From: Escherichia phage A221
Sequence record: ON862890.1
Direction: 5' to 3' (one strand)
DNA: 64,000 bases
The notes under the pieces were generated by a model that worked only from the letters and a program-made list of their open reading frames with translations, was not told the DNA's origin and did no database searches. A program made the translations under genes and the position numbers. Positions 8,401-62,322 of this stretch are shown here, in pieces; position 1 is the stretch's first letter, and every line of letters starts with the position of its first letter.

Positions 8401-8481
8401 TCAATCTCCAGCCTGATGCTATAATGTGTGGGCGGGGGCGTTCCCCGCCTATTTGAAATGATTCTTCTACACGAGGCTGAA

Positions 8482-10408: not shown

Positions 10409-11281
10409 ATGACAACTACATTTTCCAAGAACGTGAATCTGAATCTGGCTTTCGGTAATGCAAAGGGCGACGTCACATCGCCCGACTTTGGTAAGATCCG
10501 CAATCAGGCGAAACTGGTGCTGGAAGAAACCCGTGAACTGCTGGAAGCGGCGTATTTCGACCACGAGGTGAAAATTGAGTTCACTGCATCTCCGCGAGTC
10601 CTGAAAGAACCCGTTGTTGTCGACATCAAAGACATTATGCGCCAGATCATGGATGCCCAGGGCGACATCACAACAGTCAACGACGGTGTGGCTCATATTG
10701 CTGGTTTCGACGGTGACGAATGTCTACAGCGCGTGTATGCCTCTAACATGAGCAAGTTCATCCGTAATGAAGGTGAAGTTGTGCCAGCACTGGATTACTA
10801 CTACAACAAAGGATTCCCACGCGAAAGTCTGCGCATCGAAGGGGAATTCCCTCAGGTGTGCATCAAAGTGGTAGACACCATCACTGTCGACGGCAAAGAG
10901 TACCCGGCTGGCAAGTTCCTGAAGAACATGGCAACCTTCAAAGAGCCTGACTTCTCTGATATGTTGACCGTCGAGCCTAAGCGCCAGATCACCGAAATCA
11001 TTCTGACGGGCACGGCCATTCCAGGCCAGCTCGGATGCAACGAACACGCTGGTGTTGCCTTCGCTCCGTTCGATTTTATTGACGAGATCATGGGATACAC
11101 CAAGATGGGCTTTCAGGCGTTCTCTGGCGAAACAGTCGAGAGCTACATTCCCGTGTTTGTTTTCAATGAAGACAACTTCCCAACTCTGCCGTTGATCTGG
11201 GGTGAATGGAAAGCCAACGTCCGTATCTATGTGGCCAGCCCAGTGCAATCATCTATCACCCAACTGACCCGTATCGATTAA
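10409..11281 (+). CDS. hypothetical protein (290 aa); weak all-alpha NTP-pyrophosphohydrolase-like N-terminal motifs
   Basis: ORF track; LEETRELLEA and DAQGDI are suggestive only. Confidence 0.5.
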   Translation: MTTTFSKNVNLNLAFGNAKGDVTSPDFGKIRNQAKLVLEETRELLEAAYFDHEVKIEFTASPRVLKEPVVVDIKDIMRQIMDAQGDITTVNDGVAHIAGFDGDECLQRVYASNMSKFIRNEGEVVPALDYYYNKGFPRESLRIEGEFPQVCIKVVDTITVDGKEYPAGKFLKNMATFKEPDFSDMLTVEPKRQITEIILTGTAIPGQLGCNEHAGVAFAPFDFIDEIMGYTKMGFQAFSGETVESYIPVFVFNEDNFPTLPLIWGEWKANVRIYVASPVQSSITQLTRID

Positions 11282-11349
11282 GATATACAGTTATTCACTA
11301 AACAACAGAGGCTATAATGGCCTCTGTTTTCGTATTCTAAGAGGATACC

Positions 11350-12570
11350 ATGAAAGATAAAGCCCTAGACGTCCCGTACTGCGGTGTCCGTGAAGAAAAG
11401 ATAAAGTCGGCCAAACCGGTTCTCAGTCCGACCCATACCAGCCTGTCTTACGAATGGATGCGCGATCGTTATCAGATCCACGTCAAGAAGGACGTCCAGC
11501 GCCTTCCTGCTCCTTGGACTGATAATCCCATATTACGGCAGGTCAAGTTCTGTAACGTCCGGAGAGAGCACGACAGGCAGTCTCTCAACCTGATCAACAA
11601 CATCGTCAACAACGATGCTCTGGGTATGGCCGACAAGATGTTCAACTGCGTGATGTTTCGCATGTTCAACCTCTGGGATCCAATCCAGGCTATCGGCGGC
11701 GCGATGACGATCAAAGAATTCGCCGAGATCAACCTCGATGCAACCCGCGAACGACTTCAGAAGTTCGAGGCCGACGGCGGTAAGGTATTCACCAATGCCT
11801 TCAACACGGGCGGCCTGAAGCAATGCCTGGCTTTCCCTGAGCTGGTTGTCAACCACAAGGAGCAGCGCTTCGGTGGGATGATGGTGAATCTGATCTGTAA
11901 AGATGGTTCAACCCAGAACATGGATTATAAAGAAGCCAAGGCGATAGCCGAAGCAGAACCGGACTTCTACACCATCGAAGGTTGGGAACCGTACATGCCA
12001 ATGCGTGTCATCCGCTCCCTGAAGGCATTCGTCAACAAGTATCCAAATTACTTCCATGACCTGCTGCGCCTTGGTACTCCTTTGGAAGTATACCAGCGCA
12101 TGTATGACGACATCGAAGGGCTTGGTCCATTCCTGGCCTATCAGATCTGGGTAGACTTCACTTACATTCCTGAATATCCTTTCAGTGAGAACCACTTCAC
12201 GGTTGCTGGACCAGGCTGTCGCGCAGGGATCGACCTGATGTTCCAGGACAAAGATGGCATGACGCATGAAGAATGCATCTTCTGGTTGCGGGACAATCAG
12301 GACGCGGTTTATGGCCCTCTTGGGTATAACAGGGAAGAATTTTGGTCTGCGGAAGAGCCTTGGGATCAGTGTATGAATGTGATGAGCATCGAGAATATGG
12401 CATGTGAATTGTCGAAATATACTCGTTGTGTAGAGGCCATACAGCAAGGTAAAAAACCGCGCGGGAAGGTTGGATATGACGGCGGTGGGGAATACAAAAA
12501 GCGCTGTGATGAAGTCGTGCTCAAACGTGGTTCCGTCAATTTGCTGGACCGTTTGAAGAAACCTGAATAA
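11350..12570 (+). CDS. hypothetical protein (406 aa)
   Basis: ORF track; AAGAGGA RBS; no family recognised. Confidence 0.55.
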   Translation: MKDKALDVPYCGVREEKIKSAKPVLSPTHTSLSYEWMRDRYQIHVKKDVQRLPAPWTDNPILRQVKFCNVRREHDRQSLNLINNIVNNDALGMADKMFNCVMFRMFNLWDPIQAIGGAMTIKEFAEINLDATRERLQKFEADGGKVFTNAFNTGGLKQCLAFPELVVNHKEQRFGGMMVNLICKDGSTQNMDYKEAKAIAEAEPDFYTIEGWEPYMPMRVIRSLKAFVNKYPNYFHDLLRLGTPLEVYQRMYDDIEGLGPFLAYQIWVDFTYIPEYPFSENHFTVAGPGCRAGIDLMFQDKDGMTHEECIFWLRDNQDAVYGPLGYNREEFWSAEEPWDQCMNVMSIENMACELSKYTRCVEAIQQGKKPRGKVGYDGGGEYKKRCDEVVLKRGSVNLLDRLKKPE

Positions 12571-15179: not shown

Positions 15180-15590
15180 ATGAAACCTGTTATATGTGAT
15201 TACTGCGGCCTCCCAGCCGAATTCGTCGGTGGTGATGTTCTCTACCCTCATCGCCCTGACCTCCGCAATCTGAAGTTCTGGGTGTGCACTCCATGTGATG
15301 CCCGTGTCGGTTGCCATACCCATGGCGACGGCAGACAACCTTTGGGAAGGATGGCGAATGCCGCTCTCCGTGCTGCTAAGCAGGAAGCCCATAGATCGTT
15401 TGACCCATTGTGGAAAAGCGGAGAGAGGAGCAGGAGCGACGCTTATAGTTGGCTGGCGCATAAGCTGGGGATAAAGAAGCGTGAGTGTCATATTGGCTTG
15501 TTCGATATCGACATGTGCCGTAAAGTAGTTGTTGTCTGTCAACAATACGAGGCACATATCAATGTCAAAGGAAATACAAGAAGCGTTTGA
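15180..15590 (+). CDS. zinc-ribbon protein (137 aa)
   Basis: CDYCG...CTPCDARVGCH four-Cys motif; start chosen after terminator. Confidence 0.5.
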   Translation: MKPVICDYCGLPAEFVGGDVLYPHRPDLRNLKFWVCTPCDARVGCHTHGDGRQPLGRMANAALRAAKQEAHRSFDPLWKSGERSRSDAYSWLAHKLGIKKRECHIGLFDIDMCRKVVVVCQQYEAHINVKGNTRSV

Positions 15591-15867
15591 GAATCTAACT
15601 CAGGCGCTCACCAACTGCAACCGTCTCAACTATTGCAACGACCCATTGCAAAAGCTGAAGTCCCTGGTAGAATCAGAACTGGCTAAACTGGCCGAATACA
15701 ACGCCATCCAAGAAGACGTGGCGTTCATGTCGGACACGGTCGTAGACACCCTTCCGCGCGAAGTGTACAATGTCTTGGGCCGCATCACAAAGGTGGGTTT
15801 CCGTGAACCACAAGACGCCAAACCCACCCCCGAAATTCTTACATCCATCGTTGACTCGTTTAAGTGA
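15562..15867 (+). CDS. hypothetical protein (101 aa)
   Basis: Internal ATG with GAGG RBS; overlaps upstream gene by 29 nt. Confidence 0.4.
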   Translation: MSKEIQEAFENLTQALTNCNRLNYCNDPLQKLKSLVESELAKLAEYNAIQEDVAFMSDTVVDTLPREVYNVLGRITKVGFREPQDAKPTPEILTSIVDSFK

Positions 15868-15873
15868 GACGCC

Positions 15874-16107
15874 ATGTCTAAAGAGATTATCTTTACCGGG
15901 GCGGCGCTTGACACCATGTATGCCCTGTACAATCGTGGTCCACTGAGCATTGGCGATATCCCGTCTAAGTCAGGTCTGGACTTCCTGTTACGACATAAGC
16001 TGGTTGTGGCTGTGGTGGTCAGGGGTGAAACGCAATACGCCGGGTCGATGGCCATGGCTTCCCACTACAAACGTCAGACATGGAAGGGTGCTTCCTCCAA
16101 ATCCTGA
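15874..16107 (+). CDS. hypothetical protein (77 aa)
   Basis: ORF track. Confidence 0.4.
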   Translation: MSKEIIFTGAALDTMYALYNRGPLSIGDIPSKSGLDFLLRHKLVVAVVVRGETQYAGSMAMASHYKRQTWKGASSKS

Positions 16108-16261
16108 GTTTGTCAAAACCTTTTCAATATCAATAACGTCCAGTGTAAATGCTGGGCGTTTCAATTAACTCTTCGCAGTATAATATGCCATGACTAACAA
16201 ACAGAGGCCTGGCCCATGTCCGTGAAATACCTGGTGTTACTGAAGTGAAGGTCGACTAACC

Positions 16262-16432
16262 ATGACAGAACCATTCAAGAAAGCTGGTCTAGACACCATC
16301 GACCTCAGCTTTAAACCGAGCGAAACGCTGATGAGTCAGATTGAACTCAATCGCGACTTCCTTGAATATATGCTGGTCAAGCCGGAAGGTGAGGCCGAAG
16401 ACAACCCTGAAGAAGGCAATAACGATGATTGA
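16262..16432 (+). CDS. small acidic protein (56 aa)
   Basis: Translated by hand (MTEPFKKAGLDTIDLSF...EEGNNDD); stop overlaps vWA start. Confidence 0.3.
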   Translation: MTEPFKKAGLDTIDLSFKPSETLMSQIELNRDFLEYMLVKPEGEAEDNPEEGNNDD

Positions 16433-18626
16433 ATCATTAGAATTTAAGAATGCGGTTGCGACTGCTGCCCCGTCCAACCATGTAATCGTTGTAGACATTT
16501 CTGGCTCTATGTACCGTGCACTCCCTGAAGTCCGTAAGCATCTGAAGGAGAACCTGCCTTCCCTGGTGAAACCGGAAGACACTGTGAGTGTTCTATACTT
16601 CTCATCTCGTGGCGACTTTGGCACTGTGTTCGCTGGTCGCCAGGTTAGTGCTGCGTCTGACCTGAGCGAGCTGAACAAACTGATCGACCGCTTCCTACAA
16701 CCATCTGGCTGTACTGGTTTTGTTGAGCCGTTGAAACTGGCGATGGACACTGCTCGTGGCCTGAAGAAGCCTGGCTATGTCAACAACCTGGCGTTCATGA
16801 CTGACGGGTATGACAACTGCTGGCGTACCAACGAAATTCTACTGGTTGCTGAGACCCTGCCATTTGCTTTCGATAACATTACATTTATCGAATATGGCTG
16901 GTACTGTAACCGCGAACTGCTGGCGCAGATGGCCGAACGCTCTGGTGCTACTCACGTGTTTGCCGAAGGTCAGACCGAATACCAGACCGAGCTGGAAAAC
17001 GTGCTGAAGTCATCAGTGCCGAAGGTGGTTGTTGATGTGCCTCTGTTATACACCCATGCTATCTATGTTGAAAACGGCGTAGCAACTGTTCTGGCGGTAC
17101 AGCCGGATGAAGACCATCCTATCGGCCACGTGAGCATCCCTGAGAGCGTCACCAAGCTGTGGGTTGTAAACCCTAACATGATCGACCAGATGGATAGCCT
17201 GACGGACATCCAGGCGGCATACGTGCTGGCGTTCTACGGCGTACACATCATGGACGCGGACCTGGTGTGGGCTGCACTGAAGAAAACGGGTGACGTTCGC
17301 TTCATCAAACAGTACAGCAACTGCTTCACCAAGCAGGACTACTCCAACATCAAGAACGATCTGGTTCAGGCGATTGTTGACGACCAGCTGCGCGGCGTTG
17401 ACGGTATTGACTATGACCTGGTTCCAGCTGAAGATGCGACCACCGTCGTTGATGTGCTGACGTACCTGGCTGAAGCTGGTGTGCCTGTTGCTACCAAGCA
17501 TCCGATGTTCTCCTATAAGAGCATCGGGCGCGGTACTGTGCAGAAAACCGACGACACCGAAGACAAGCTGGCAGAACAGATCGCGAATGCTCAGTCCAAA
17601 GAAGAGCGTAAAGCCCTGGCTCTCAAGCTGGCAGAGCACGAAGAGTGGAACCCGACGTTCGAACCTACCAACGACCTGGGTGTTGTGCCAATCAGCGATT
17701 TGGTCTATAACTCCGAGCGCCCGAACATCAGTGTGCGTACAATTCAACACGGTACTGTGGCTGTGCCTGAATTCGCACAGAAGAAGTTTGGCCTGCCTGA
17801 AGAACTGGATACTTTCCAGTGGCGCAACTACACCATCGTCAAAGACGGTATCATTAACGTGAAGACTCTGCCGTTCAAGGCTGATATCGAAGTTGTACAG
17901 AAGCTGATCGAAATGGGTGTCCACGTGTTTGGTGGTCCGGAAGTGTTCATCCTGAACCTGGAAAGCGTACCGCTGGTCAACCGCGCCATGGTCAAAAACA
18001 TCAGTGCTGCTCAGTTCTTTGCGGATAATGTCCGTCTGGAAGCCCTGAAAGGCAAGCAGAAGGTGCTGAAGTTCTATCGAGACGCCCTGGTTGGTAAGGG
18101 CAACGCCAAAGGCCTGGCAGTACAGTACGGCGCTGAGGCGGCCGAGTTCCTGTCCTCCTACGGCATCCGCGATTACGGCTTCTCACCGAAGACTGAGACC
18201 AAAGAGTCTACCGACTTCTACATGAGCCGTGAGCTGAACGTGAAGATCGCTGGCGCTTCTTCTCTACCGTCTATCGCAGCGGTACAGAAGAAGATTGCCG
18301 AGAACAAGAAACTCAATGCTGGTGACTTGTTCATCGCCAATGCGCTGAAGGAGTACGAAGCATTCGTGAAGTCTCCTATGATCACTGCCGTGCCTGAAGC
18401 CTTACAGAAACAGCTGATCGAAAACTGGATCGACGCTGCTGCCAAGGCGGCCATCACCGAAGTCCGTGCCCTGAACAAGACACTGTCTAAAGTGGTGTAT
18501 GGTATCGTTGCTGGCCACGGCTGGTTCACCGACCTCGACCTGGAAGAGTCCACCATGGAAGTTGAAGTGGATGGCGTGAAGTACAAGGTCACTGCCGAAC
18601 TGACAGAGAAAGAAATCAAAATCTAA
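16425..18626 (+). CDS. large protein with N-terminal von Willebrand factor A (vWA) domain (734 aa)
   Basis: MIDAS-like VVDISGSM and downstream FMTDGYDN; about 500 aa C-terminal region unassigned; start at internal ATG. Confidence 0.7.
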   Translation: MIESLEFKNAVATAAPSNHVIVVDISGSMYRALPEVRKHLKENLPSLVKPEDTVSVLYFSSRGDFGTVFAGRQVSAASDLSELNKLIDRFLQPSGCTGFVEPLKLAMDTARGLKKPGYVNNLAFMTDGYDNCWRTNEILLVAETLPFAFDNITFIEYGWYCNRELLAQMAERSGATHVFAEGQTEYQTELENVLKSSVPKVVVDVPLLYTHAIYVENGVATVLAVQPDEDHPIGHVSIPESVTKLWVVNPNMIDQMDSLTDIQAAYVLAFYGVHIMDADLVWAALKKTGDVRFIKQYSNCFTKQDYSNIKNDLVQAIVDDQLRGVDGIDYDLVPAEDATTVVDVLTYLAEAGVPVATKHPMFSYKSIGRGTVQKTDDTEDKLAEQIANAQSKEERKALALKLAEHEEWNPTFEPTNDLGVVPISDLVYNSERPNISVRTIQHGTVAVPEFAQKKFGLPEELDTFQWRNYTIVKDGIINVKTLPFKADIEVVQKLIEMGVHVFGGPEVFILNLESVPLVNRAMVKNISAAQFFADNVRLEALKGKQKVLKFYRDALVGKGNAKGLAVQYGAEAAEFLSSYGIRDYGFSPKTETKESTDFYMSRELNVKIAGASSLPSIAAVQKKIAENKKLNAGDLFIANALKEYEAFVKSPMITAVPEALQKQLIENWIDAAAKAAITEVRALNKTLSKVVYGIVAGHGWFTDLDLEESTMEVEVDGVKYKVTAELTEKEIKI

Positions 18627-20264: not shown

Positions 20265-20714
20265 ATGTTCCTTACATCTTTTATTGACTGGTTGAACATC
20301 ATTAACGGCCTGAGGATTCCTGTTGGGAACCTCGGGCTTTCTCGTTCTTCTATGCCGCAAATCGATGCCGACAAACAAGAAGATTTTCACAAATATCTTG
20401 AAGACAACGGCGTGTCCATAGATGCTGTGCAAGTGCCCATCAAAATGCTTCGTCTCACCCAGAACGAAATCAACAAGATGAAGGTCTGGAAGATCATGAA
20501 GAACATCAGAAATAAGAAACCTATGGGTCGAGTTTGGGTGTCTTCTGACAATTACGTTGTTGACGGTTCTCACCGATTTGTCGCTGCGTTGAACATGGAC
20601 GGCAAACAGCGCATGAAGGTCTACAAAGTTGATTTGCCAGCGATGGAATTTGTTAAACTCGCTAAACAGTTTCAGGGTGTGCGATACAGAACGGTCTCAG
20701 ATTCGAGATACTAA
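20265..20714 (+). CDS. hypothetical protein, possible ParB-like nuclease domain
   Basis: GAGGTG RBS; motif VVDGSHRFVAAL resembles ParB/Srx DGxHR; weak. Confidence 0.45.
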   Translation: MFLTSFIDWLNIINGLRIPVGNLGLSRSSMPQIDADKQEDFHKYLEDNGVSIDAVQVPIKMLRLTQNEINKMKVWKIMKNIRNKKPMGRVWVSSDNYVVDGSHRFVAALNMDGKQRMKVYKVDLPAMEFVKLAKQFQGVRYRTVSDSRY

Positions 20715-20715
20715 T

Positions 20716-21549
20716 ATGGACGTCTATTCAGAACTTATCGAAATAGGAGCGAAACGTCATTTCGTAAACAAATATCTTTCGCTCATTTCTTCTTTTAGTC
20801 ATTACCAAGGCGTCGGGGAGAAGCATCACATATTACCTGTGGCATTGTTCCCCGAATATGCCACGGAATACGAAAACATCGTCAAACTGCCTCATAGGGT
20901 TCATTATATTGCCCATGTGTGTCTTGCTCTTGCGTTACCAGGTTCATGTATGGTAAATGCGATTATGATTTTGAAGCGGTTAGATAGTAGAGTCAACTCA
21001 CACCTGTTTGCGAAAATGCGCAAGAGATTCGCCGAAAGGCTTTCTGTGGTGAATGCAGGGGAAAATAATCCCATGTATGGCAAGAAGAGATCCCAGAAGG
21101 CAAAGAAAAAGACCTCGGAGTCTCTTAGAAATTTTTATAAATCTAAAAGAAAAGAAGATCCAGATTTAAAAGAATTTTTCTCGGAAAGGAATTCTAAAAT
21201 AAAACGGGGAAAAGATCACCATTCTTATGGGAATAAATTGACCAATAATCTTACTCCAGAACAAGAACGATGTAGAATAGAATCGGTCACCAAGACTTCC
21301 CGTGAAACCATGCCCTGGGAGAAGCCAAGATGGAAACCAGAAAGGGACAAATGGTGGTGTTGGGCTGCACATATACACTATCACATATTGAAAGGTAAGA
21401 CGAGAGGGGAAGCCCTGAAACAAGTATTCGGTTCCAATGACGCAGAAATTTGGGCACAGGTTCGGCCAATTATTCTACGGTTGGATAACGGTTGGGACCC
21501 TTTAACTTGCGAAAAATGGGTTAATCGTTATGGGGTGGAATACCAGTAA
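20716..21549 (+). CDS. HNH-family homing endonuclease with NUMOD-like repeats
   Basis: HHILPVALFPEY...LPHRVHYIAH HNH core; ENNPMYGKK and HHSYGNK repeats; AT-rich segment around 21100-21260. Confidence 0.65.
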   Translation: MDVYSELIEIGAKRHFVNKYLSLISSFSHYQGVGEKHHILPVALFPEYATEYENIVKLPHRVHYIAHVCLALALPGSCMVNAIMILKRLDSRVNSHLFAKMRKRFAERLSVVNAGENNPMYGKKRSQKAKKKTSESLRNFYKSKRKEDPDLKEFFSERNSKIKRGKDHHSYGNKLTNNLTPEQERCRIESVTKTSRETMPWEKPRWKPERDKWWCWAAHIHYHILKGKTRGEALKQVFGSNDAEIWAQVRPIILRLDNGWDPLTCEKWVNRYGVEYQ

Positions 21550-21643
21550 ACCACCCGTTTCTGAATACGATAGTTTATTGAATCCCTTTACTCATCATGG
21601 TGAGCCGCCTATCATTTCATCCAATGAAATAAGGAGAATCACC

Positions 21644-24282: not shown

Positions 24283-24723
24283 ATGGCTGGCGTATGGTGT
24301 GATGTCTTGCTGGTTCGTTACAGCGTAAATGGGGGTGCCCAAGTTCGTTCCGCCTTCTATCCAGTACCGTTCTCCTCTGGTGGCCTTACAGCTCAGAGGG
24401 TGTTAAGTATCGAAGCAGAACTGAACGCGAAGACATATATCGGCGATACACAAGTGTTGGGATACGATCTTCTGAACGAAATGTTGATCGATGAAGATAA
24501 GGTAGAAACCATTATTGTTAGCCGTCAAGAAATGGAGGTCTTGATGAAACTGGAAGGCACCGAAAAGACTGAAGTTCAAACGGTGTCTGTGCCTGTCGCA
24601 CCAACACAGGAACACCTTGATGCCATTGCTGGATTATTCACGCATGGATTTTGTGATGATCGCATGGCTCGTGGTATCTATGCCGCCGCACTGGGCGTTG
24701 AGAAACAAACGGAGCAAATATGA
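24283..24723 (+). CDS. hypothetical protein (146 aa)
   Basis: GGAGG RBS; starts 2 nt after upstream stop. Confidence 0.45.
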   Translation: MAGVWCDVLLVRYSVNGGAQVRSAFYPVPFSSGGLTAQRVLSIEAELNAKTYIGDTQVLGYDLLNEMLIDEDKVETIIVSRQEMEVLMKLEGTEKTEVQTVSVPVAPTQEHLDAIAGLFTHGFCDDRMARGIYAAALGVEKQTEQI

Positions 24724-24848
24724 GCACAAAGACTGTAATCGTGGTGAAAGGCTATTAATTCCGCTTTATTCAATAAAATTTGTTAGTTAAACTGTAGTCC
24801 TCTTGTAGTGAACATGAAAGTAAACATTAACCCAACGGAGAAATCCAG

Positions 24849-34769: not shown

Positions 34770-35045
34770 ATGAAAATTATCCTCGACGCATATATCCGCC
34801 ACGGTCAGAAATACCTGATGGCCAAGGTTTACGACGGCGAAGAATTGATCCACGCCCAGACCGCCCCAGCTGCCCAGCTGCGCGAAATCATGTCACGCGA
34901 CTTCCCTGGCGTTGAAATGGTAGAGCCTGCCAACCAGGCTGAAGTAGACAAAGAGTGGGAGCGCGAATGGAGTCCAGCGGCTATCGCTCGGGCTGAAAAG
35001 AATTGGTCTAACCGCGAAAACGCAAACCGCCCTTTCCGCCGTTAA
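34770..35045 (+). CDS. hypothetical protein (91 aa)
   Basis: CAGGAACTATATC-ATG motif. Confidence 0.5.
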   Translation: MKIILDAYIRHGQKYLMAKVYDGEELIHAQTAPAAQLREIMSRDFPGVEMVEPANQAEVDKEWEREWSPAAIARAEKNWSNRENANRPFRR

Positions 35046-35478: not shown

Positions 35479-38199
35479 ATGTCAAAGCTAAGTTTCCTCC
35501 AGTTCATGCAGGAAAGAGATCAGTTGGACGAAGCGTTCAACTCCGCTCCGTATGAGCTGACCATGGGCAAGAAGAACGCAGGCGATGTGTTCTTCACCTT
35601 CATCGACGAAGATGAAAAGGAATACCGTATTCAGTTCTATACCCCTCAGGGGCTGGGTAAGAGTGTTCGTCAGGTTTTCATCGGCCAGAAGCGCGGCTCC
35701 GTCTATCCTGACGCCATCGCTCGCTTCAAGAACCCAATGCGCGTTATCGCTTCCATGATCGAAGCGACCAAACAATTCATGGCGACTCCTCTGGGTAAGA
35801 CCATCGATGGCTTTGCTGTCAACTTCTCTAAGAAAGCGCTGGATCGCGGTATGACCCTGATTCCTAAGATCATCCGCCAGTCCGGCCTGAAACAGAAACT
35901 GAATGTCATGGACCTGACCTACGCGCCTGTCCCCGACCGTGGTTATGTGTGGCTGGTCCGCAAGGGTAAAGATCCGGCGCAGGTATTTGACGGTCCGAAG
36001 ATGCAGGGTATCACCTGGGACGACCCAGACAAGGTCGGTGACGTTCCGGTTCAGAACAATACTCCGGATGTGGGTGTGTCATCTTCTGTTGATAATTCCA
36101 ACGGATGGAAATTAACTTCAAACGGGGATCAGCCCATGTTGTTATGGGCTGGTAAGGAGAGAGGCCGCATGAACACGGCAAATATCGCTCCCCACTACAA
36201 TGAGCCGGGCGTGTATGTTGGCGCATACATGAATGAGAAACCTGTGCGTGGGCAAAGTGCTGATTTCATTGCTCGTCAGTTGAAATTACCGCAAGTCCCT
36301 ATCAATATCCTGAATGATTTCACCATGGCGTCTACAAAATTTTGGAAAGGTTCTCAAAACAGTTCAGACAGAAATAACCCAGCCAACATTATCGGTTCTG
36401 GAACTGCTGTTATTGATGCCAAACGACTTGGTGCTCGAGAAGTAAACGTGGAACGATTCAAAAACGGTGTTCGCATGCGTTCTCAAAACGGTGACGTCGA
36501 CATCAGTATTTCCGACCCAGACTTTTCAAATGCAGCAAGTGCGACTGATGCTGCCACTGCCTCTGTTGTGGTCAAAAACGGGCGTTACGAAGGTGCCATC
36601 AATTCAAAGCGCAAGATTGCCCGCATCTCGAACGAGCAGGGTACTGAATGGGATATCATCGGTGTCAACGGGGAAACCCTTGTCTCTATCAAGTTGAACA
36701 AAGTGTCTAAATCCGCATCGGATTCGACCGAGGGTGCAACCAGTGTTGATCAATTACGTGACAGCGGTTTCATCGCTCGTGTTCTGGGTATCATTGATAC
36801 CAACGTTGGGCTGGACACTTCTATTCTTCCTGGTGAAAACATCCGTCGTGTGGGCGCTGGTCGTTACACGACAGCAGGCGGGTTGGTTATCGTTGTCAAC
36901 TTCACAAACGTCCTCGCTGGTTTCGTTCAATACTCAGTTTTCAGCGAAATTGCTGAAGAGGAGAGCGTGGCCAAAGGTAGCGCCCGTGACGTCGCCAATG
37001 CGGTAATTGCGTCCATCTTTGAGGTTGCCAAGACCCAGTACACTGGCAAATGGGAAATTAGCGCAGTGCCAACAAGCGCTCCATATCCTATCAAAGCCAT
37101 TCGCCGTTCTCGGGGCTGGGGTTATGTGGAAACCGCAAACTGGACTCTGACAGTGTCCGACGCTGTCCTGAATCGTGTGAAGCCAGGGAAAACTGCTCTA
37201 CTGGAACTCATCAAAGAACCTCCGCGTGGCAAGCACCCGCTGGAAATCATCCCAGAGAAGGGCGACAAGACCCTGATGCTGAAAGATCGTATTACCGGGG
37301 CCATCTATGGTTCTATCGACCTGAATGCCCAAGGCGCTGATCTGGTCAACTCTGGAACCCTGAAGATACCAAGCAACGCCATGGTGTTTGGTGAGACTGT
37401 CAACGGTATGTCCATCACTTGGTCTGGCGTCAATTTCCCGAAAACTGGGAAGTATGATGGTGCTGTATTGACCACGAATGTGACCTATTACTACGACAAA
37501 GGCAAAGTGGCGATCACGCCTATTGTATCCAATAAAGGTCGTACCCTGAACAATCCGAAGACATATGAACTTACTTTGAAGAAAGATATTGTTCAGGCCG
37601 TGATCGATGAAATTTCTTCTAAAATGGAAATGATATCTCGGAATATACAAACTCTGAAAAGCACGTCGTATAATCCGAAACAAGTATTTTTGGACGACAT
37701 TTCTGTTGACAACAACGGTTCAGTCCTTTGGCGCGGGTACGACATGGCGGATCGCCGCACTAATGAATTTATGTTGGGTATCCTGTCCAAAGAAACCGAG
37801 AGACTGGAGAAAGAGTCGAGTACTGCGAAGAAGACTGGTGCCGACCTTGCGGCATACGCCGACTCCATCCGCGACAACGCACCAAAAGGCCGCGACCTGG
37901 ATTGGCAGATCTATGCAAGCCGTGATGGTCAGACTCTGAACGTGGACTGGGATATCACCTTCCGCCGCAACACAACTGAAGGGGCATATCGCGAGTTCAA
38001 ATCTCAGATTGACCGCGCCAACCAGTACCTGCAGACTCTGTACCGGGATGCGAAGTCCAAGGGTTACAACCCGACTGAACCAAACCTGATGACTCTGGAT
38101 AGCGCCCAGCAGTCTGACCAGTGGGCACGAGACTACGGGGAAGGCGCATACAGCGAGTACGAGCAGTCCCTGGGTGGCAACATGCAGATTAAGATCTGA
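35479..38199 (+). CDS. large hypothetical protein (906 aa)
   Basis: AGGAG RBS; long uninterrupted ORF; no family recognised. Confidence 0.6.
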   Translation: MSKLSFLQFMQERDQLDEAFNSAPYELTMGKKNAGDVFFTFIDEDEKEYRIQFYTPQGLGKSVRQVFIGQKRGSVYPDAIARFKNPMRVIASMIEATKQFMATPLGKTIDGFAVNFSKKALDRGMTLIPKIIRQSGLKQKLNVMDLTYAPVPDRGYVWLVRKGKDPAQVFDGPKMQGITWDDPDKVGDVPVQNNTPDVGVSSSVDNSNGWKLTSNGDQPMLLWAGKERGRMNTANIAPHYNEPGVYVGAYMNEKPVRGQSADFIARQLKLPQVPINILNDFTMASTKFWKGSQNSSDRNNPANIIGSGTAVIDAKRLGAREVNVERFKNGVRMRSQNGDVDISISDPDFSNAASATDAATASVVVKNGRYEGAINSKRKIARISNEQGTEWDIIGVNGETLVSIKLNKVSKSASDSTEGATSVDQLRDSGFIARVLGIIDTNVGLDTSILPGENIRRVGAGRYTTAGGLVIVVNFTNVLAGFVQYSVFSEIAEEESVAKGSARDVANAVIASIFEVAKTQYTGKWEISAVPTSAPYPIKAIRRSRGWGYVETANWTLTVSDAVLNRVKPGKTALLELIKEPPRGKHPLEIIPEKGDKTLMLKDRITGAIYGSIDLNAQGADLVNSGTLKIPSNAMVFGETVNGMSITWSGVNFPKTGKYDGAVLTTNVTYYYDKGKVAITPIVSNKGRTLNNPKTYELTLKKDIVQAVIDEISSKMEMISRNIQTLKSTSYNPKQVFLDDISVDNNGSVLWRGYDMADRRTNEFMLGILSKETERLEKESSTAKKTGADLAAYADSIRDNAPKGRDLDWQIYASRDGQTLNVDWDITFRRNTTEGAYREFKSQIDRANQYLQTLYRDAKSKGYNPTEPNLMTLDSAQQSDQWARDYGEGAYSEYEQSLGGNMQIKI

Positions 38200-41189: not shown

Positions 41190-41338
41190 TCCATACGTGT
41201 AACATAGGGGAGGCAACTCCCCCTATCAGGTCTTGGGAGGAGATCACAGTCATTCAATCCTCTTTAGGCGCTCTCTGGGTTGCTGACACATTCAGAACAA
41301 AGTCTCCCCCAGCTCCTCGAGTAGTTCACTTTCACTTT

Positions 41339-45479: not shown

Positions 45480-45549
45480 ATTGGTCTAAACATACTACCG
45501 TTATATCATCAGGGGTGAGAGATCACCCCTTATTAATCAGGAAAGAAAC

Positions 45550-58882: not shown

Positions 58883-58957
58883 ATTTAAGTTCAGAAACTG
58901 TTCAATAGATGAAGGGGTTGCTATAATAGCAGCTCCTTTTGTTTATCGGAGCAGTTT

Positions 58958-59617
58958 ATGTCCTACTCCCTGAAGGGGCTGATGAAGCGCCCCGTCCACA
59001 CATTCTTTAAACCACCCGTCGTAAAGGGGATCTACCCAGCACGAGGGCAAATCTACTACGTCAAAGGCTCCAATGGTAGCGGTAAATCCACTGTGCCGTC
59101 TCAGCTGGCGGAGAGGGATCCTCAGGCGTATGTCGTGACCCATAACGGCAAGGTAATGCTGACTGTCTGTCCTTCGTTCAACGTGGTCTGTATCGGTAAA
59201 TATGACAAGTCGAAGTCCAAGGGGGTTGATTCCCTGAAGGACACTGAGCAGATGTTGTTCGCGTTGTCTATTGCTGACCAACCAGAATACTTGAAATATG
59301 ATGTGATTTTCGAAGGTATCATTCCATCAACATTATTGAGTTCTTGGATCCCCCGCCTGACACGCCCACCACGTGAATTGGTTGTGCTCTTTATGGACAC
59401 TCCCCTTGAAACGTGTATCTCCCGCGTTAAATCACGTAACGGTGGTGTGGACTTCAATGAAGGTCTGGTGGTCGAGAAGTGGGAGAGAGTTCATGACCAT
59501 CGTCAACGACATAAAGACTTGTTCCCTACGGTAGCTGCGGGTATGATGAAGTCTCACGGCCTAACGGTAGACCAGGCTGTGATGGCATTCCTCTGTCGTG
59601 ATTTTGGGAGTATCTGA
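58958..59617 (+). CDS. P-loop kinase (nucleotide or modified-base kinase)
   Basis: Walker A GSNGSGKST; GGAG RBS; stop overlaps next start. Confidence 0.6.
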   Translation: MSYSLKGLMKRPVHTFFKPPVVKGIYPARGQIYYVKGSNGSGKSTVPSQLAERDPQAYVVTHNGKVMLTVCPSFNVVCIGKYDKSKSKGVDSLKDTEQMLFALSIADQPEYLKYDVIFEGIIPSTLLSSWIPRLTRPPRELVVLFMDTPLETCISRVKSRNGGVDFNEGLVVEKWERVHDHRQRHKDLFPTVAAGMMKSHGLTVDQAVMAFLCRDFGSI

Positions 59618-60663
59618 TGGAAATCAAAGCAATTAACAACAATGACATGCTGAAGCAGGCTGTCTTGGCTATCCGTGAATTCGGGATCGAATCTGATCCT
59701 GGTAATGCTGAAATAAATACTGATAGCACCCGCTTCCTTGATGGCGTGACCATAACCGTCGCCGACATCCGTGACCGCTGGCTATCCGTTGAAGGTCGTA
59801 ACTCATCGGCTATCGCTGCCATCGGCGAGACCTTCTGGGTTCTGTCCGGGCGCGATGACGTTCGCTTCCTGTCCCGCGTGTTGCCCCGCGCCGCCAACTT
59901 TTCCGACAACGGCCACACATGGCGAGCCGCTTATGGTCCGCGTCTGTACGCCCATGGCCAGCTGGATAGCGTTATCAACCGCCTGCGCAAGAACCCAAAC
60001 ACTCGCCAGGCGTACCTCACCATCTATGACCCGGCTCTAGATTCGGATGCTGGTCTGGCGAAGTTCAGCGAGAGCGGCGAAGCGAAGACCAAGGACATGG
60101 TGTGTAACTTGGCTCTGTTGTTCGCCATCGTTGAAGGTCGTCTGAACCTGACGGTCATCAATCGCTCACAGGATGTTCTTTGGGGGATGAGTTCAATTAA
60201 CTTCATTGAGTTCTCTATTCTTCAGGAAGTGATTGCTCGGGTGCTGGATGTTGATGTCGGTCAGTACAAGCTATTCTCTAATAATCTTCATTACTACAAC
60301 AATGAAGTCAGCCAGAAGCAGCTGGGCAAGATCACGAAGGACACCAAAGTAGAAGCTGGGTTCATCAACTCCATGATTCACTTCACGAACGTGACCAACC
60401 AGAACCATATCCGCAATCTGTTCACTGGTGTGCTTCATCACTGTGATATCGGCAGCCCGTGGGAAACTGTGGTCGCCCACCTGAAGGAATATGATGCTGA
60501 TCGTGGCCTGATTGTACAGATGGCGTACTGTCTGCACTGCAAACTGAACGAAAAGCTCATTAACCTGGACCTGATTCAGGATCATGGCTTGAACATCGCG
60601 CTCACCCATTCCCCGGTTGACCGCAAGATCGTTGATCCTAAGTTCCTGGAAGGTGTAGTATGA
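59617..60663 (+). CDS. thymidylate-synthase-family pyrimidine C5 methylase/hydroxymethylase
   Basis: NPNTRQAYLTIYDP; catalytic Cys in DMVCNLALLF; NRSQDVLWGMSSINF aligns to ThyA QRSCDVFLGLPFNIA with Asn retained; 348 aa. Confidence 0.75.
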   Translation: MEIKAINNNDMLKQAVLAIREFGIESDPGNAEINTDSTRFLDGVTITVADIRDRWLSVEGRNSSAIAAIGETFWVLSGRDDVRFLSRVLPRAANFSDNGHTWRAAYGPRLYAHGQLDSVINRLRKNPNTRQAYLTIYDPALDSDAGLAKFSESGEAKTKDMVCNLALLFAIVEGRLNLTVINRSQDVLWGMSSINFIEFSILQEVIARVLDVDVGQYKLFSNNLHYYNNEVSQKQLGKITKDTKVEAGFINSMIHFTNVTNQNHIRNLFTGVLHHCDIGSPWETVVAHLKEYDADRGLIVQMAYCLHCKLNEKLINLDLIQDHGLNIALTHSPVDRKIVDPKFLEGVV

Positions 60664-61229
60664 TGTACCCAAATCTTGAATTCTTTACGGGGCGCAAACG
60701 CTCCGGTAAGGACTTCTGTTTGGAGTCCCTCATCAGCTATCACCAACTACAGGGTGATATGGACATACAGCGCCTTTCTTTCTCTGATGAACTGCGCCGT
60801 GTAGCCAACTACATCTACCCATGGCTCCCAGCGGAGGTAGAGGATGCCGTGAAGGACGTTCCTTACGTGCACCCTGATAACCCCAAGGGCTTAACTCCAC
60901 GGCAGATCTGGCTTCATCTAGGCAGCGATACGGGCTTGCGTTACGTACAACCCGATCTGTTCCTGGCATTCTTCAAGCGCTTCCAGCTTCCTCTGGTAGA
61001 GCAGAACCCCCACGTCCATTATATCGTGAGCGATCTGCGTACCCCTCAGGAATATGAATGGGCGCTGAGTACGAAATGTCCTATCACCCGTATTTCAAAG
61101 GCCGACCGTGCTGGTATCATAGAGGATGATATAGAGGCTTTCATTGACCAAATGAAAGTGGACTACGAATTCCTCAATCCATTTGATGGTTGGGAACCGT
61201 TCGTTAAATTCTACGGAGAACGTAAATGA
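60660..61229 (+). CDS. deoxynucleoside monophosphate kinase (gp1-like)
   Basis: N-terminal FFTGRKRSGKD matches T4 gp1 LSGVKRSGKD P-loop. Confidence 0.6.
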   Translation: MMYPNLEFFTGRKRSGKDFCLESLISYHQLQGDMDIQRLSFSDELRRVANYIYPWLPAEVEDAVKDVPYVHPDNPKGLTPRQIWLHLGSDTGLRYVQPDLFLAFFKRFQLPLVEQNPHVHYIVSDLRTPQEYEWALSTKCPITRISKADRAGIIEDDIEAFIDQMKVDYEFLNPFDGWEPFVKFYGERK

Positions 61230-61780
61230 TCACAGCAGGGCATATCAAAAGCCTGCTCGAACTCCAAAAGGCCACCAACGTGGCCTACTTTGGGGAAGAG
61301 TGGAAGAATGTATGGAGTCAGAACGCAGTCATCAACTCTATCTATCGTGAGTGGGCAGAGTTCCTTGATGAAACCACCCGTGACTGGAAGGTCTATGGCA
61401 ACGACATCGGGTTTGACCATACGAACGCAGTTTATGAACTGGTGGACGTGGTACACTTCATGTTGTGCTTCATCCTTGTGGACCGCACCAAAGGTGAGAT
61501 CGAAGAAGAATTTGAAGTCCTTAGTAATCGCGAATTCACCCCATCTGCTTTGGGTGTTGTAGGGCATCGCAATGTTACGTACCGCCTTGGGCAATTCATG
61601 AACGATCCTTGCGTTGAGACTCTCATGTTCTTCCTGTCGTCTGCGTGTTCTTATATGGAGATCGACATTGAGACTTACATACTGGCACACAAACGCAAGA
61701 ACGATCGCAATCGCCTGCGTGCTGCTGGTGGCGCGGATTACGATAAGTCCGCAGAAACCCCTCTGACCCTGGAGTTCTAA
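61226..61780 (+). CDS. all-alpha dNTP pyrophosphatase (gp56-like)
   Basis: ELVDVVHFMLCF matches T4 gp56 ELVDIFHFVLNMF. Confidence 0.6.
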   Translation: MITAGHIKSLLELQKATNVAYFGEEWKNVWSQNAVINSIYREWAEFLDETTRDWKVYGNDIGFDHTNAVYELVDVVHFMLCFILVDRTKGEIEEEFEVLSNREFTPSALGVVGHRNVTYRLGQFMNDPCVETLMFFLSSACSYMEIDIETYILAHKRKNDRNRLRAAGGADYDKSAETPLTLEF

Positions 61781-62322
61781 TGTTTACAGTCGTCGTTTCA
61801 TATCATGCAGACAACGCGGCGAACGCATCCGCTAATTTCGCCGAGCACATCATCGGCGGCGGTCATAATGTATTCCTTACTGAATACACCAGGCCTGTTA
61901 AACCAGGCGACGGTCTTTCGGCGACTGTTACGCATAAGATCGCCAGCGAGCAACCAGAGTCTCTGTTCAGGATGATCGAAGAGTATGCCGGTGGTGGCAT
62001 CAAGATACCAGATGAACTGGTAGACGTCTATTTTGAAGGCTCGATCTATTACATCCACGCTATGCCAAAGGATGTAACCATTGAACAGATGATGTATATC
62101 CTGAATATAGCACTGAACACTGCGTGCATCAACCGCACGAACTACAACAATCTGCGCAATATGTACCTAACCGACCGGCATAATGACGCATCGTCACTTG
62201 TTGAGACAATGTCCCTGAAGAGCATCCAAGAGGCGGTTAACATTTTGTCCCAGAAGGTTATGGGTGTAGAATTATTAACGACGATCAACAATAAAGAGGA
62301 AGTGAAATGGCCAGTTCATTAA
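61780..62322 (+). CDS. hypothetical protein (180 aa)
   Basis: ORF track; ATG overlaps upstream stop. Confidence 0.45.
   Translation: MFTVVVSYHADNAANASANFAEHIIGGGHNVFLTEYTRPVKPGDGLSATVTHKIASEQPESLFRMIEEYAGGGIKIPDELVDVYFEGSIYYIHAMPKDVTIEQMMYILNIALNTACINRTNYNNLRNMYLTDRHNDASSLVETMSLKSIQEAVNILSQKVMGVELLTTINNKEEVKWPVH

Follow-up and report, generated by a model that had tools for sequence, protein, structure and literature searches.

The stretch of DNA analysed here (the window) comprises 64,000 nucleotides of Escherichia phage A221 and belongs to an Agtrevirus-like (ViI-like) phage of the Ackermannviridae. It is approximately 98% identical to Escherichia phage PC3, which matches the whole window in nine blocks at 96.6 to 98.9% identity. 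At positions 58958-61780 lie four plus-strand genes, every one of them ATG-initiated (Table 1). PC3 also matches this module, at 98.2% along its full length (100%). Matches to the module come from 249 phage records, which are Ackermannviridae-type among the matches listed. Consecutive genes overlap by 1, 4 and 4 nt (ATCTGATGG, GTATGATG and TAAATGATC at the gene 1/2, 2/3 and 3/4 junctions, respectively), as the first-pass annotation had indicated in describing four tightly overlapping genes. A fifth gene overlaps the end of the fourth by a single nucleotide and is itself overlapped by the UvsX gene by 16 nt. The four reading frames are not chance ORFs because their products find strong family matches (PF18748, E=1e-108; phrog_3676, 1e-182; phrog_139, 1e-47; phrog_173, 3e-40) and because differences from the ViI orthologues pile up at codon position 3 of the plus-strand frames (24/8/102, 9/8/62 and 33/18/131 at positions 1/2/3 for three genes). 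The hairpin directly upstream, a pattern match of a type that is no more frequent in this region than shuffling would predict, likely marks the transcription-unit boundary of the module.

Table 1 Features of the predicted base-modification module and of related genes in the 64-kb window
Feature	Position	Strand	Basis and remarks
MazG-like pyrophosphatase, ViI gp161 orthologue	10409..11281	+	adjoins gp160 orthologue; phrog_2144
ViI gp160 orthologue (aGPT-Pplase clade 1; Pfam 'HMUDK_hel')	11350..12570	+	tblastn, PF18723, phrog_2396
Terminator-like hairpin	58911..58939	+	13-bp stem then TTTTGTTTAT, directly 5' of module; consensus scan
RBS GGAG	58949-58952	+	ahead of gene 1
Gene 1: predicted 5-hydroxymethyl-dU DNA kinase (5-HMUDK), ViI gp67 orthologue	58958..59617	+	219 aa; PF18748 and synteny
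Gene 2: predicted dUMP hydroxymethylase, TS fold with MilA-type C-terminal helical domain	59617..60663	+	348 aa; PF00303, phrog_3676
Gene 3: predicted deoxynucleoside monophosphate kinase, T4 gp1 family	60660..61229	+	189 aa; phrog_139
Gene 4: predicted all-alpha NTP pyrophosphatase, dimeric dUTPase / T4 gp56 family	61226..61780	+	184 aa; PF08761, phrog_173
Phage ACT-like protein	61780..62322	+	PF24021, E=3.5e-79; translationally coupled, 1-nt overlap

The comparison with 5-hmU DNA kinase profiles that had been proposed as a check gave a full-length match for the first gene product, which aligns with positions 1-195 of the 196 in PF18748 (HMUDK_HMUD1; E=1.1e-108, 361.6 bits against a cut-off of 27). 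The protein is 88% identical over 219 aa to gp67 of ViI (YP_004327432), gene order is conserved, and the kinase gene adjoins the same thymidylate synthase (TS)-like gene as in ViI. Its Walker A residues (G37, G40, G42, K43 and T45) and R156/R160 are invariant with M6 gp54, ViI gp67 and ViI gp243, all of which have demonstrated kinase activity on 5-hmdU in DNA (PMC8989533). In the case of ViI gp67, 5-hmdU in SP8 DNA was phosphorylated with a gain of 80 Da, corresponding to a single phosphate (PMC8989533). The gene 1 product would likewise be expected to use ATP to monophosphorylate the hydroxymethyl group of 5-hmdU, yielding 5-PmdU, and its substrate is probably 5-hmdU already in DNA after replication rather than the free nucleotide, as shown for ViI gp67 (PMC8989533). 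The earlier suggestion that a P-loop kinase could phosphorylate the hydroxymethyl group thus gains a close relative with proven activity. Databases tell a different story, in which the protein is a small terminase subunit unrelated to base modification: it matches phrog_800, named 'terminase small subunit' (E=1e-67), and RefSeq applies this label to ViI gp67, M6 gp54 and the Ag3 and SKML-39 orthologues. We give this reading almost no credence, given the PF18748 match (E=1e-108), the demonstrated 5-hmdU DNA kinase activity of ViI gp67 and M6 gp54 (PMC8989533) and the presence in ViI of a separate small terminase, Vi01_162c, directly 5' of the large terminase gene. The label has the appearance of a misannotation carried over from record to record.

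The second gene product matches PF00303 over residues 67-235 (57.7 bits, above the gathering score) and phrog_3676 (E=1e-182). Cys163 aligns with the catalytic Cys146 of E. coli ThyA, and Asn195 aligns with ThyA Asn177 and with Asp179 of T4 dCMP hydroxymethylase (T4dCH), the base-discriminating position thus being Asn (uracil) and not Asp (cytosine). Both residues, correctly picked out in the first-pass annotation, are found in 48 of 48 homologues, and Asp160 in 47 of the 48. Together with C163, residues E71, Y106, R130, R183, S184, D186, H225 and Y227 align with catalytic residues of E. coli TS, and the estimate of about 85 extra residues relative to ThyA is also accurate (348 versus 264 aa, a difference of 84). 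The profile match, the catalytic Cys and the dUMP-type Asn could also describe an ordinary thymidylate synthase making dTMP beside genes of generic nucleotide metabolism; most annotated records among the matches listed carry the label 'thymidylate synthase', and approximately 60% canonical T remains in ViI virions (PMC5889632). Several lines of evidence make that reading very improbable. Against seven NCBIfam TS equivalog models the protein scores 37-57 bits, all far below the cut-offs of 108-427 (the best being 56.6 bits for a cut-off of 327). Residues specific to TS are changed, with the Trp80 position deleted, Leu143 replaced by Asp160 and His147 by Asn164, and the C-terminal tail of TS gives way to a helical domain, some 85 extra residues, of the type described for MilA (PMC5175136). 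Asp160 lies three positions before the catalytic Cys and aligns with T4dCH Asp145, the proposed water activator, and with Leu143 of E. coli TS (PMC6400193); this acidic signature was defined on a dCMP hydroxymethylase and is extended to dUMP enzymes here by inference.

Structural comparison points in the same direction. The closest solved structure is that of MilA, the CMP 5-hydroxymethylase of mildiomycin biosynthesis (PDB 5JNH, 5B6D), which is closer than any TS in both sequence (7e-18, versus 1e-8 to 1e-6 for thymidylate synthases) and fold. An AF2 model of the gene 2 product (pLDDT 93.9) matches the TS and MilA folds, with MilA ranking first among PDB folds (about 350 columns, TM 0.70 versus approximately 0.55 for thymidylate synthases) and providing the only match that covers the C-terminal helical domain. 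Both proteins are TS superfamily members with this additional domain, at roughly 21% identity. They differ in that MilA acts on CMP and has Asp where gene 2 has Asn195. Gene 2 also keeps Arg183/Ser184, mapped by homology to E. coli TS R166/S167, whereas the ribose-preferring MilA has Lys and Ala where TS and T4 CH have Arg and Ser (PMC5175136). More distant relatives sampled outside the family include enzymes of M6 (4e-27), SH-Ab 15599 (2e-46) and CP-51 (4e-24). The DNA of M6 and SH-Ab 15599 contains 5-hmdU or one of its derivatives, and CP-51 DNA contains 5-hmdU. Among near relatives, the protein is 76% identical to the ViI enzyme and 95.4% identical to orf073 of Escherichia phage CBA120, a phage that does not incorporate 3H-thymidine (PMC3184105) and in whose DNA 5-NeOmdU, a nucleoside of 301 Da, amounts to about 40% of T (PMC5889632). 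An ordinary TS is difficult to square with a 95%-identical enzyme in a phage lacking labelled thymidine incorporation (PMC3184105), and would leave the adjacent 5-hmdU DNA kinase without a substrate. A dUMP hydroxymethylase, predicted to convert dUMP and methylene-THF into 5-hmdUMP, is strongly favoured because of Asp160, the MilA-type tail, the proximity to MilA, the low TS scores and the thymidine exclusion and 5-NeOmdU of CBA120. The earlier opinion that methyl and hydroxymethyl transfer could not be distinguished from sequence was therefore too cautious, as all of these features bear on the choice. Our literature search found no purified-protein assay for any dUMP hydroxymethylase of the ViI group.

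Genes 3 and 4 can be assigned to families known from T4. The gene 3 product shares phrog_139 with T4 gp1 (E=1.2e-47 and 1.8e-65, respectively) and has an N-terminal P-loop, GRKRSGKD, that resembles GVKRSGKD of T4 gp1. Identity is 90% with ViI Vi01_059c ('dnk') and 32% with the N-terminal half of gp18 from SH-Ab 15599 (E=1e-18); no PDB sequence match was found. The gene 4 product shares phrog_173 with T4 gp56 (3e-40 and 5.8e-39), scores 36.7 bits on PF08761 (dUTPase_2; cut-off 22.9), has a dimeric dUTPase (1w2y, E=0.0013) as its best PDB sequence match and is 61% identical to ViI Vi01_058c. The names 'gp1-like' and 'gp56-like' given in the first pass hold at the level of these shared PHROGs but not in pairwise BLASTP, where the two proteins reach only E=0.003 with gp1 and 0.005 with gp56, in each case over a short motif. 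The gene 3 kinase would convert 5-hmdUMP to 5-hmdUDP, a role suggested by its position next to the hydroxymethylase and by the published summary of hmU-phage pathways (PMC8989533). For gene 4, the C-terminal domain of SH-Ab 15599 gp18 is a syntenic but distant guide (E=6e-10, only 24% identity), and gp18 hydrolyses dTTP and dUTP while sparing 5hmdUTP (PMC13458397). Q14 and N18 of gene 4 align with the Q and N proposed to contact the base in gp18, whereas Y35 and W56, two of the four proposed specificity residues, have no identical counterparts in the alignment. The gene 4 product is probably a dUTPase/dTTPase, removing dTTP and returning dUMP.

In ViI, the counterparts of all four genes occur as Vi01_061c-058c (gp67 5-HMUDK, 'thyA' dUMP hydroxymethylase, dnk and dUTPase) with order and orientation unchanged, and in both phages the module is followed by the ACT-like gene and uvsX. 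The window's proteins are 88%, 76%, 90% and 61% identical to those of ViI. The two phages belong to different subfamilies, the window's to the Aglimvirinae and ViI to the Cvivirinae. They carry different alleles of the hydroxymethylase (76%), and divergence is marked in the pyrophosphatase and the ACT-like protein. CBA120 carries the equivalent genes as orf074-orf070, with flanking genes that are ViI-type (94-99% identical to ViI, 55-87% to the window), so that only the hydroxymethylase gene is highly shared with the window. Kutter et al. (2011) read the CBA120 genes as encoding an hmdU synthase, with a dNMP kinase next to it and a dUTPase that probably acts on dTTP too, an interpretation that agrees with the first-pass reading of the window. 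Their reading was supported by the lack of 3H-thymidine incorporation (PMC3184105) and, at a later date, by the finding of 5-NeOmdU. Module genes are conserved across the Ackermannviridae (PMC11721090, PMC6336734). We consider it very probable that the four genes form the conserved ViI-type thymidine-replacement module of this family, leading towards 5-NeOmdU, and the first-pass proposal of a pathway replacing dT with 5-hmdU or a hypermodified derivative fits well, as all of its elements match the published ViI-type pathway. Work on close orthologues has demonstrated the kinase activity and the exclusion of thymidine, as well as the chemistry of 5-NeOmdU.

The proposed pathway would begin before replication, when the pyrophosphatase would hydrolyse dUTP, and most likely dTTP as well, to monophosphates. 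The TS-fold enzyme would convert dUMP to 5-hmdUMP; where TS transfers a hydride to the exocyclic methylene intermediate, this enzyme would add water. The gp1-type kinase would produce 5-hmdUDP and host NDP kinase 5-hmdUTP, which the phage polymerase would insert in place of dT. After replication, 5-HMUDK would attach a single phosphate to 5-hmdU residues in the DNA, at their hydroxymethyl group. This phosphate would then be displaced by a serine:DNA transferase (gp247 type) to give O-serinyl-T, from which a PLP decarboxylase (gp226 type) would form 5-(2-aminoethoxy)methyl-dU (5-NeOmdU); both enzymes would be encoded outside the window. Leftover 5-hmdU would end as ordinary T (about 60% in ViI), and the modified DNA would be expected to resist many restriction enzymes. 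By homology we infer what the four proteins of this phage do, that the pyrophosphatase acts on dTTP, and which base is finally made.

The modification system extends beyond these four genes. An orthologue of ViI gp160, one of five ViI proteins used in the reconstitution of 5-NeOmdU (PMC5889632 Table 3) and given no function in PMC8989533, lies inside the window 47 kb upstream of the module, about as far from it as in ViI. It is 81.8% identical to gp160 over 407 aa (tblastn) and matches PF18723 (E=3.4e-81) and phrog_2396 (E=1e-155). The adjoining MazG-like protein is 59.6% identical to ViI Vi01_131c and matches phrog_2144 ('MazG-like pyrophosphatase', E=2.5e-131), with no match in Pfam or NCBIfam; it may act on the nucleotide pool and is an uncertain member of the system. 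No gene for the serine transferase (gp247 type) or the PLP decarboxylase (gp226 type) lies in the 64-kb window, nor does one for the second kinase. PC3 encodes orthologues of gp226 (90%), gp247 (88%) and gp243 (48%), and from this relative all three are predicted to be present in the window's phage as well. In PC3 the second-kinase sequence shares just 48% identity with ViI gp243 and forms part of a CDS that carries a homing endonuclease annotation.

It is conceivable that this lineage makes 5-hmdU DNA with an end base that differs from that of ViI, either unmodified 5-hmdU or another adduct. Our literature search found no chemical analysis of enzyme or virion DNA for A221 or any of the Aglimvirinae, including any Agtrevirus or Limestonevirus genome, and the PP35 paper describes the structure of the modification as 'yet to be determined' (PMC6336734). 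Related transferases take other donors, including glycine, putrescine and 1,3-diaminopropane (PMC8989533, PMC13458397), the second kinase of the nearest relative is divergent and lies in a longer CDS, and the pyrophosphatase (about 60%) and ACT-like gene (about 55%) are far more diverged from Kuttervirus than the kinase genes are. A different end base is nevertheless decidedly unlikely. The PC3 transferase, which selects the donor, and the decarboxylase are close to the ViI enzymes at the identities given above, and measurements have revealed 5-NeOmdU in two further genera, Kuttervirus (PMC5889632) and Taipeivirus (bioRxiv 10.64898/2026.05.19.726188). That the window encodes 5-HMUDK together with an orthologue of gp160 speaks against a pathway ending at 5-hmdU. 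The ViI-type route to 5-NeOmdU remains our preferred reading.

The ACT-like gene is found in 269 phage records and, in all annotated matches listed, lies between the pyrophosphatase and UvsX genes. The records are Ackermannviridae-type among the matches listed, and the hosts among these are enterobacterial save for single Enterococcus- and Pseudomonas-labelled records. An AF2 model of the protein is confident only in its N-terminal beta-alpha-beta-beta-alpha-beta half, and its top-ranking PDB hit, the ACT domain 1zpv, is a weak one (E=3e-3). One speculative and rather unlikely idea is that the gp160-type gene, the ACT-like gene or both carry out or regulate the conversion of 5-hmdU to T, a variant being that the Aglimvirinae bear an adduct other than 5-NeOmdU.

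More distant systems can help to place the module. Acinetobacter phage SH-Ab 15599, described for its alpha-dapT pathway (NAR 2026), encodes in gp17-gp18 a dUMP hydroxymethylase 36% identical to that of the window (E=2e-46). Kinase-like and dTTPase/dUTPase functions come next, with UvsX after them, as in the window. Its kinase-like and pyrophosphatase parts are fused into one protein of 391 aa, whereas the window has two genes overlapping by 4 nt, and its adduct is 1,3-diaminopropane instead of aminoethoxy. The T4 hmC pathway (gp56, gp42 and gp1) follows the same logic, in which the canonical dNTP is destroyed and the dNMP is hydroxymethylated by a TS-fold enzyme and re-phosphorylated by a dedicated kinase. 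The T4 target is cytosine (Asp179) and that of the window uracil (Asn195); T4 genes are scattered while those of the window overlap, and decoration in T4 is by glucosylation, in contrast to the phosphorylation and amino-acid transfer on DNA of window-type systems.

The system itself is already known. The gene set, its interpretation and its chemistry were published between 2011 and 2021 for near-identical phages, and the ViI 5-NeOmdU pathway was reportedly described by Lee et al. in 2018 and 2021. The module carries little weight as a discovery, as reviews already state the conservation of its genes across the Ackermannviridae. Its value lies in annotation, where the hydroxymethylase is called a thymidylate synthase in most records among the matches listed and the 5-hmdU DNA kinase goes under the name of a small terminase subunit in RefSeq and PHROGs. 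Since the modification blocks many restriction enzymes, the module is also relevant to phage therapy, DNA cutting and sequencing. The logic of the pathway was correctly recoverable by a reader using the sequence alone.

The thymidylate synthase (TS)-family enzyme of the module, a protein of 348 residues, is well supported as a predicted dUMP hydroxymethylase. The first-pass annotation had held that methyl and hydroxymethyl transfer cannot be told apart from sequence, a view that did not survive: hydroxymethyl transfer is strongly favoured by an Asp ahead of the catalytic Cys, a likeness to MilA (the CMP hydroxymethylase of mildiomycin biosynthesis), TS scores below cut-off and a link to phage CBA120. 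Residues were aligned with E. coli ThyA, the T4 dCMP hydroxymethylase gp42 (T4dCH), M6 gp58, CP-51 gp100 and the ViI enzyme. PF00303 spans residues 67-235, and the claimed catalytic Cys is kept as Cys163 (ThyA Cys146), along with Glu71, Tyr106, Arg183, Ser184, Asp186, His225 and Tyr227. The Asn noted earlier at the base-discriminating position is likewise present, as Asn195, which aligns with ThyA Asn177 and T4dCH Asp179 and is invariant in 48 homologues. The position of TS Trp80 is deleted, and TS His147 is replaced by Asn; mutants of TS at Trp80/82 leak 5-hmdUMP. Three residues ahead of the catalytic Cys, Asp160 (kept in 47 of the 48 homologues) aligns with T4dCH Asp145, the equivalent in E. 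coli TS being Leu143. Asp145 has been suggested to activate the substrate water (PMC6400193).

Structural comparison points the same way. The top PDB sequence match is MilA (7e-18), with thymidylate synthases at 1e-8 to 1e-6, and every NCBIfam thymidylate-synthase equivalog falls far below its cut-off (best 56.6 bits vs 327). Confidence is high along the whole of an AlphaFold2 model built from the 48 aligned sequences (pLDDT 93.9, pTM 0.93), and Foldseek aligns the model with MilA over ~350 columns (TM 0.70) and with thymidylate synthases over only ~265 (TM ~0.55). Because of this fuller alignment, the roughly 85 residues by which the enzyme was said to exceed ThyA can be explained as a C-terminal helical domain like that of MilA, a domain absent from TS and T4 CH (PMC5175136). 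This domain takes the place of the TS tail that closes over folate.

Sampling beyond the family brought in more distant relatives, among them the enzymes of M6 and SH-Ab 15599, phages with 5-hmdU or a derivative of that base. The CP-51 enzyme also matches, and CP-51 DNA contains 5-hmdU. Closer at hand, CBA120 orf073 is 95.4% identical to the 348-aa enzyme; CBA120 does not incorporate 3H-thymidine, and orf073 has been argued to be a dUMP hydroxymethylase (Kutter et al. 2011, PMC3184105). ViI, CBA120 and their relatives carry a 301-Da nucleoside, 5-NeOmdU, in place of ~40% of T (Lee et al. 2018, PMC5889632). While so close to the Agtrevirus-type allele of the window, the CBA120 hydroxymethylase shares only 76% identity with that of its fellow Kuttervirus ViI, which carries the other allele, whereas the flanking genes of CBA120 are ViI-like (94-99% identity). 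The gene thus looks mosaic across the family, as if a single-gene allele had been swapped between subfamilies. Phages of both alleles, CBA120 and ViI, have measured 5-NeOmdU (PMC5889632).

The four tightly overlapping genes described at 58958-61780 were borne out by their open reading frames, ATG starts and stop/start overlaps of 1, 4 and 4 nt at the three junctions. A GGAG ribosome-binding site lies just 5' of the first gene and, given that it and a hairpin are directly upstream, the run probably begins a transcription unit. Site counts in the promoter/terminator scan equalled shuffle expectation, this hairpin alone being noteworthy. It was found by pattern matching only, and TATAATA spans its loop and flanking stem bases; the stem-loop may act as a terminator, as a promoter element or as both. 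Relative to the ViI orthologues, substitutions in the module fall mostly at third positions of + frame codons (24/8/102, 9/8/62 and 33/18/131 at positions 1/2/3). Since they follow the + strand codon pattern, minus-strand ORFs within the module (59526-59918, 60271-60672, 61211-61690 and others) were taken as probable shadow ORFs. Two minus-strand ORFs can be mapped onto ViI, where one (60733-60969) is broken by a stop.

Features of the modification module and of its associated genes in the window
Feature	Coordinates	Strand	Product and start	Remarks
MazG-like pyrophosphatase	10409-11281			adjoins gp160 orthologue
gp160 orthologue	11350-12570			82% identity; Pfam PF18723
Terminator-like hairpin	58911-58939			just 5' of kinase gene; pattern scan
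DNA kinase gene	58958-59617	+	219 aa, ATG	
TS-family enzyme gene	59617-60663	+	348 aa, ATG	
dNMP kinase gene	60660-61229	+	189 aa, ATG	
Pyrophosphatase gene	61226-61780	+	184 aa, ATG	
ACT-like gene (fifth gene)	61780-62322			1-nt overlap with pyrophosphatase gene; followed by uvsX, 16-nt overlap

The first gene encodes an end-to-end match to Pfam PF18748, '5-hmdU DNA kinase' (E=1.1e-108), which is 88% identical to ViI gp67 (YP_004327432) and shares its gene order. ViI gp67, ViI gp243, M6 gp54 and others move one phosphate from ATP onto 5-hmdU in SP8 DNA to give 5-PmdU (Lee et al. 2021, PMC8989533), and the 219-aa protein shares its Walker A residues and two arginines unchanged with these validated kinases. 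The earlier suggestion that an extra P-loop kinase phosphorylates the hydroxymethyl group therefore holds as to role, with the amendment that the substrate is DNA and not a free nucleotide. Apart from P-loop noise from ABC transporters (E of at least 0.009), a PDB sequence search with this kinase turned up no match and hence no solved relative. NCBIfam searches returned no match for it, the dNMP kinase, the ACT-like protein, the gp160 orthologue or the MazG-like protein. In PHROGs (phrog_800) and RefSeq (ViI Vi01_061c, M6 gp54, Ag3, SKML-39 and others), the family is called 'terminase small subunit', a name that we reject as a propagated annotation error because in ViI a distinct small terminase is encoded immediately upstream of the large one.

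The labels 'gp1-like' and 'gp56-like' given to the next two proteins stand at the family level: the 189-aa protein matches phrog_139 (E=1.2e-47), which holds the T4 dNMP kinase gp1, and the 184-aa protein matches phrog_173 (E=3e-40), which holds the T4 dCTPase gp56. Beyond that they do not carry, direct BLASTP being marginal (E=0.003 against gp1 and 0.005 against gp56). The dNMP kinase found no solved relative in a PDB sequence search up to E=1; the pyrophosphatase exceeds the Pfam dUTPase_2 threshold and has a dimeric dUTPase as its best PDB match. A more informative counterpart is found in Acinetobacter phage SH-Ab 15599 (filed under Ackermannviridae), where gp18 (391 aa) is encoded between the dUMP hydroxymethylase and uvsX genes. 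The 189-aa kinase matches its N-terminal half (E=1e-18, 32% identity) and the 184-aa pyrophosphatase its C-terminal domain (E=6e-10, 24% identity), so the two overlapping window genes (60660-61780) correspond to the two halves of what is one fused protein in SH-Ab 15599 (11151-12326). The gp18 C-terminal domain hydrolyses dTTP and dUTP and spares 5hmdUTP (2026, PMC13458397). The fused counterpart supports a functional link between the two window genes and also the reading of the pyrophosphatase as a dTTPase/dUTPase, which was proposed in 2011 by Kutter et al. (PMC3184105). Of the four residues proposed to contact the base in gp18, just two, the Q-x3-N pair, transfer cleanly to the 184-aa protein, and so no specificity is claimed from residues; its dTTP/dUTP specificity is a prediction by homology. 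Gp18 was published as a dTTPase/dUTPase, and its N-terminal half is homologous to the window dNMP kinase; it looks like a kinase-pyrophosphatase fusion. Phosphorylation of 5-hmdUMP in SH-Ab 15599 has been ascribed to host enzymes (PMC13458397).

The gene of the ACT-like protein (PF24021) is coupled in translation to the module; in every annotated record among those listed, it stands between the pyrophosphatase gene and uvsX. With 55% identity to Kuttervirus, the protein is changing more quickly than those around it, and only 14 homologue clusters were found for it. Its AF2 model reaches pLDDT 69.6, with the N-terminal half alone confident, and Foldseek returned generic ferredoxin-like and ACT matches (E of at least 3e-3) from which no function was drawn.

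The four genes make up just one portion of a pathway whose genes are dispersed, and the system is already known. In the published route, 5-hmdU in DNA is converted to 5-PmdU by 5-HMUDK, to O-serinyl-T by gp247 and to 5-NeOmdU by gp226 (PMC8989533). Searching by tblastn for the five ViI proteins used in 5-NeOmdU reconstitution revealed two in the window, gp67 and gp160. The other three (PLP decarboxylase gp226, serine:DNA transferase gp247 and second kinase gp243) have no match in these 64 kb, and have counterparts in Escherichia phage PC3 (90, 88 and 48% identity, respectively). In PC3, the gp243 counterpart makes up the C-terminal ~295 aa of a CDS of 498 aa (136037-137533) that is labelled 'homing endonuclease F-LimXI'; either the two are fused or the annotation is at fault. 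Pathway genes are stated to be conserved family-wide (PMC11721090, PMC6336734), and 5-NeOmdU has been measured in a Taipeivirus too (bioRxiv 10.64898/2026.05.19.726188). The proposed resemblance to pathways that replace dT with 5-hydroxymethyl-dU or hypermodified derivatives is supported. We infer the final product in the Aglimvirinae lineage, since no chemical analysis of Aglimvirinae phages was found in the literature.

Matches to the 2.8-kb module came from 249 phage records; those listed are Ackermannviridae-type, with Salmonella, Escherichia, Klebsiella, Dickeya and Shigella hosts. The top match is PC3 (Aglimvirinae; 98.2% over 100% of the module), which aligns with the entire window in nine blocks of 96.6-98.9% identity. 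The neighbouring genes (gp32, gp2, uvsX and gp41) belong to the T4-like replication and baseplate set typical of ViI-like phages, and no tRNAs were found within the window. One 857-bp stretch (20696-21553) has no PC3 counterpart; its ORF (20716-21549) carries a NUMOD3 motif (E=7e-9) together with His-rich motifs of the kind that mark homing endonucleases, and the stretch is probably a mobile endonuclease insertion. Conversely, PC3 segments of ~650, 470 and 300 bp are missing at ~8481-8484, 41316-41325 and 45542-45547, among them PC3_000041, a hypothetical protein adjoining the clamp-loader gene. Four short stretches (15545-16410, 24516-24756, 34773-35044 and 36047-36362) are unaligned to PC3 at the megablast level. 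A 761-aa protein (16341-18626), whose N-terminal part holds a von Willebrand factor A domain (E=7e-6), is kept in PC3.
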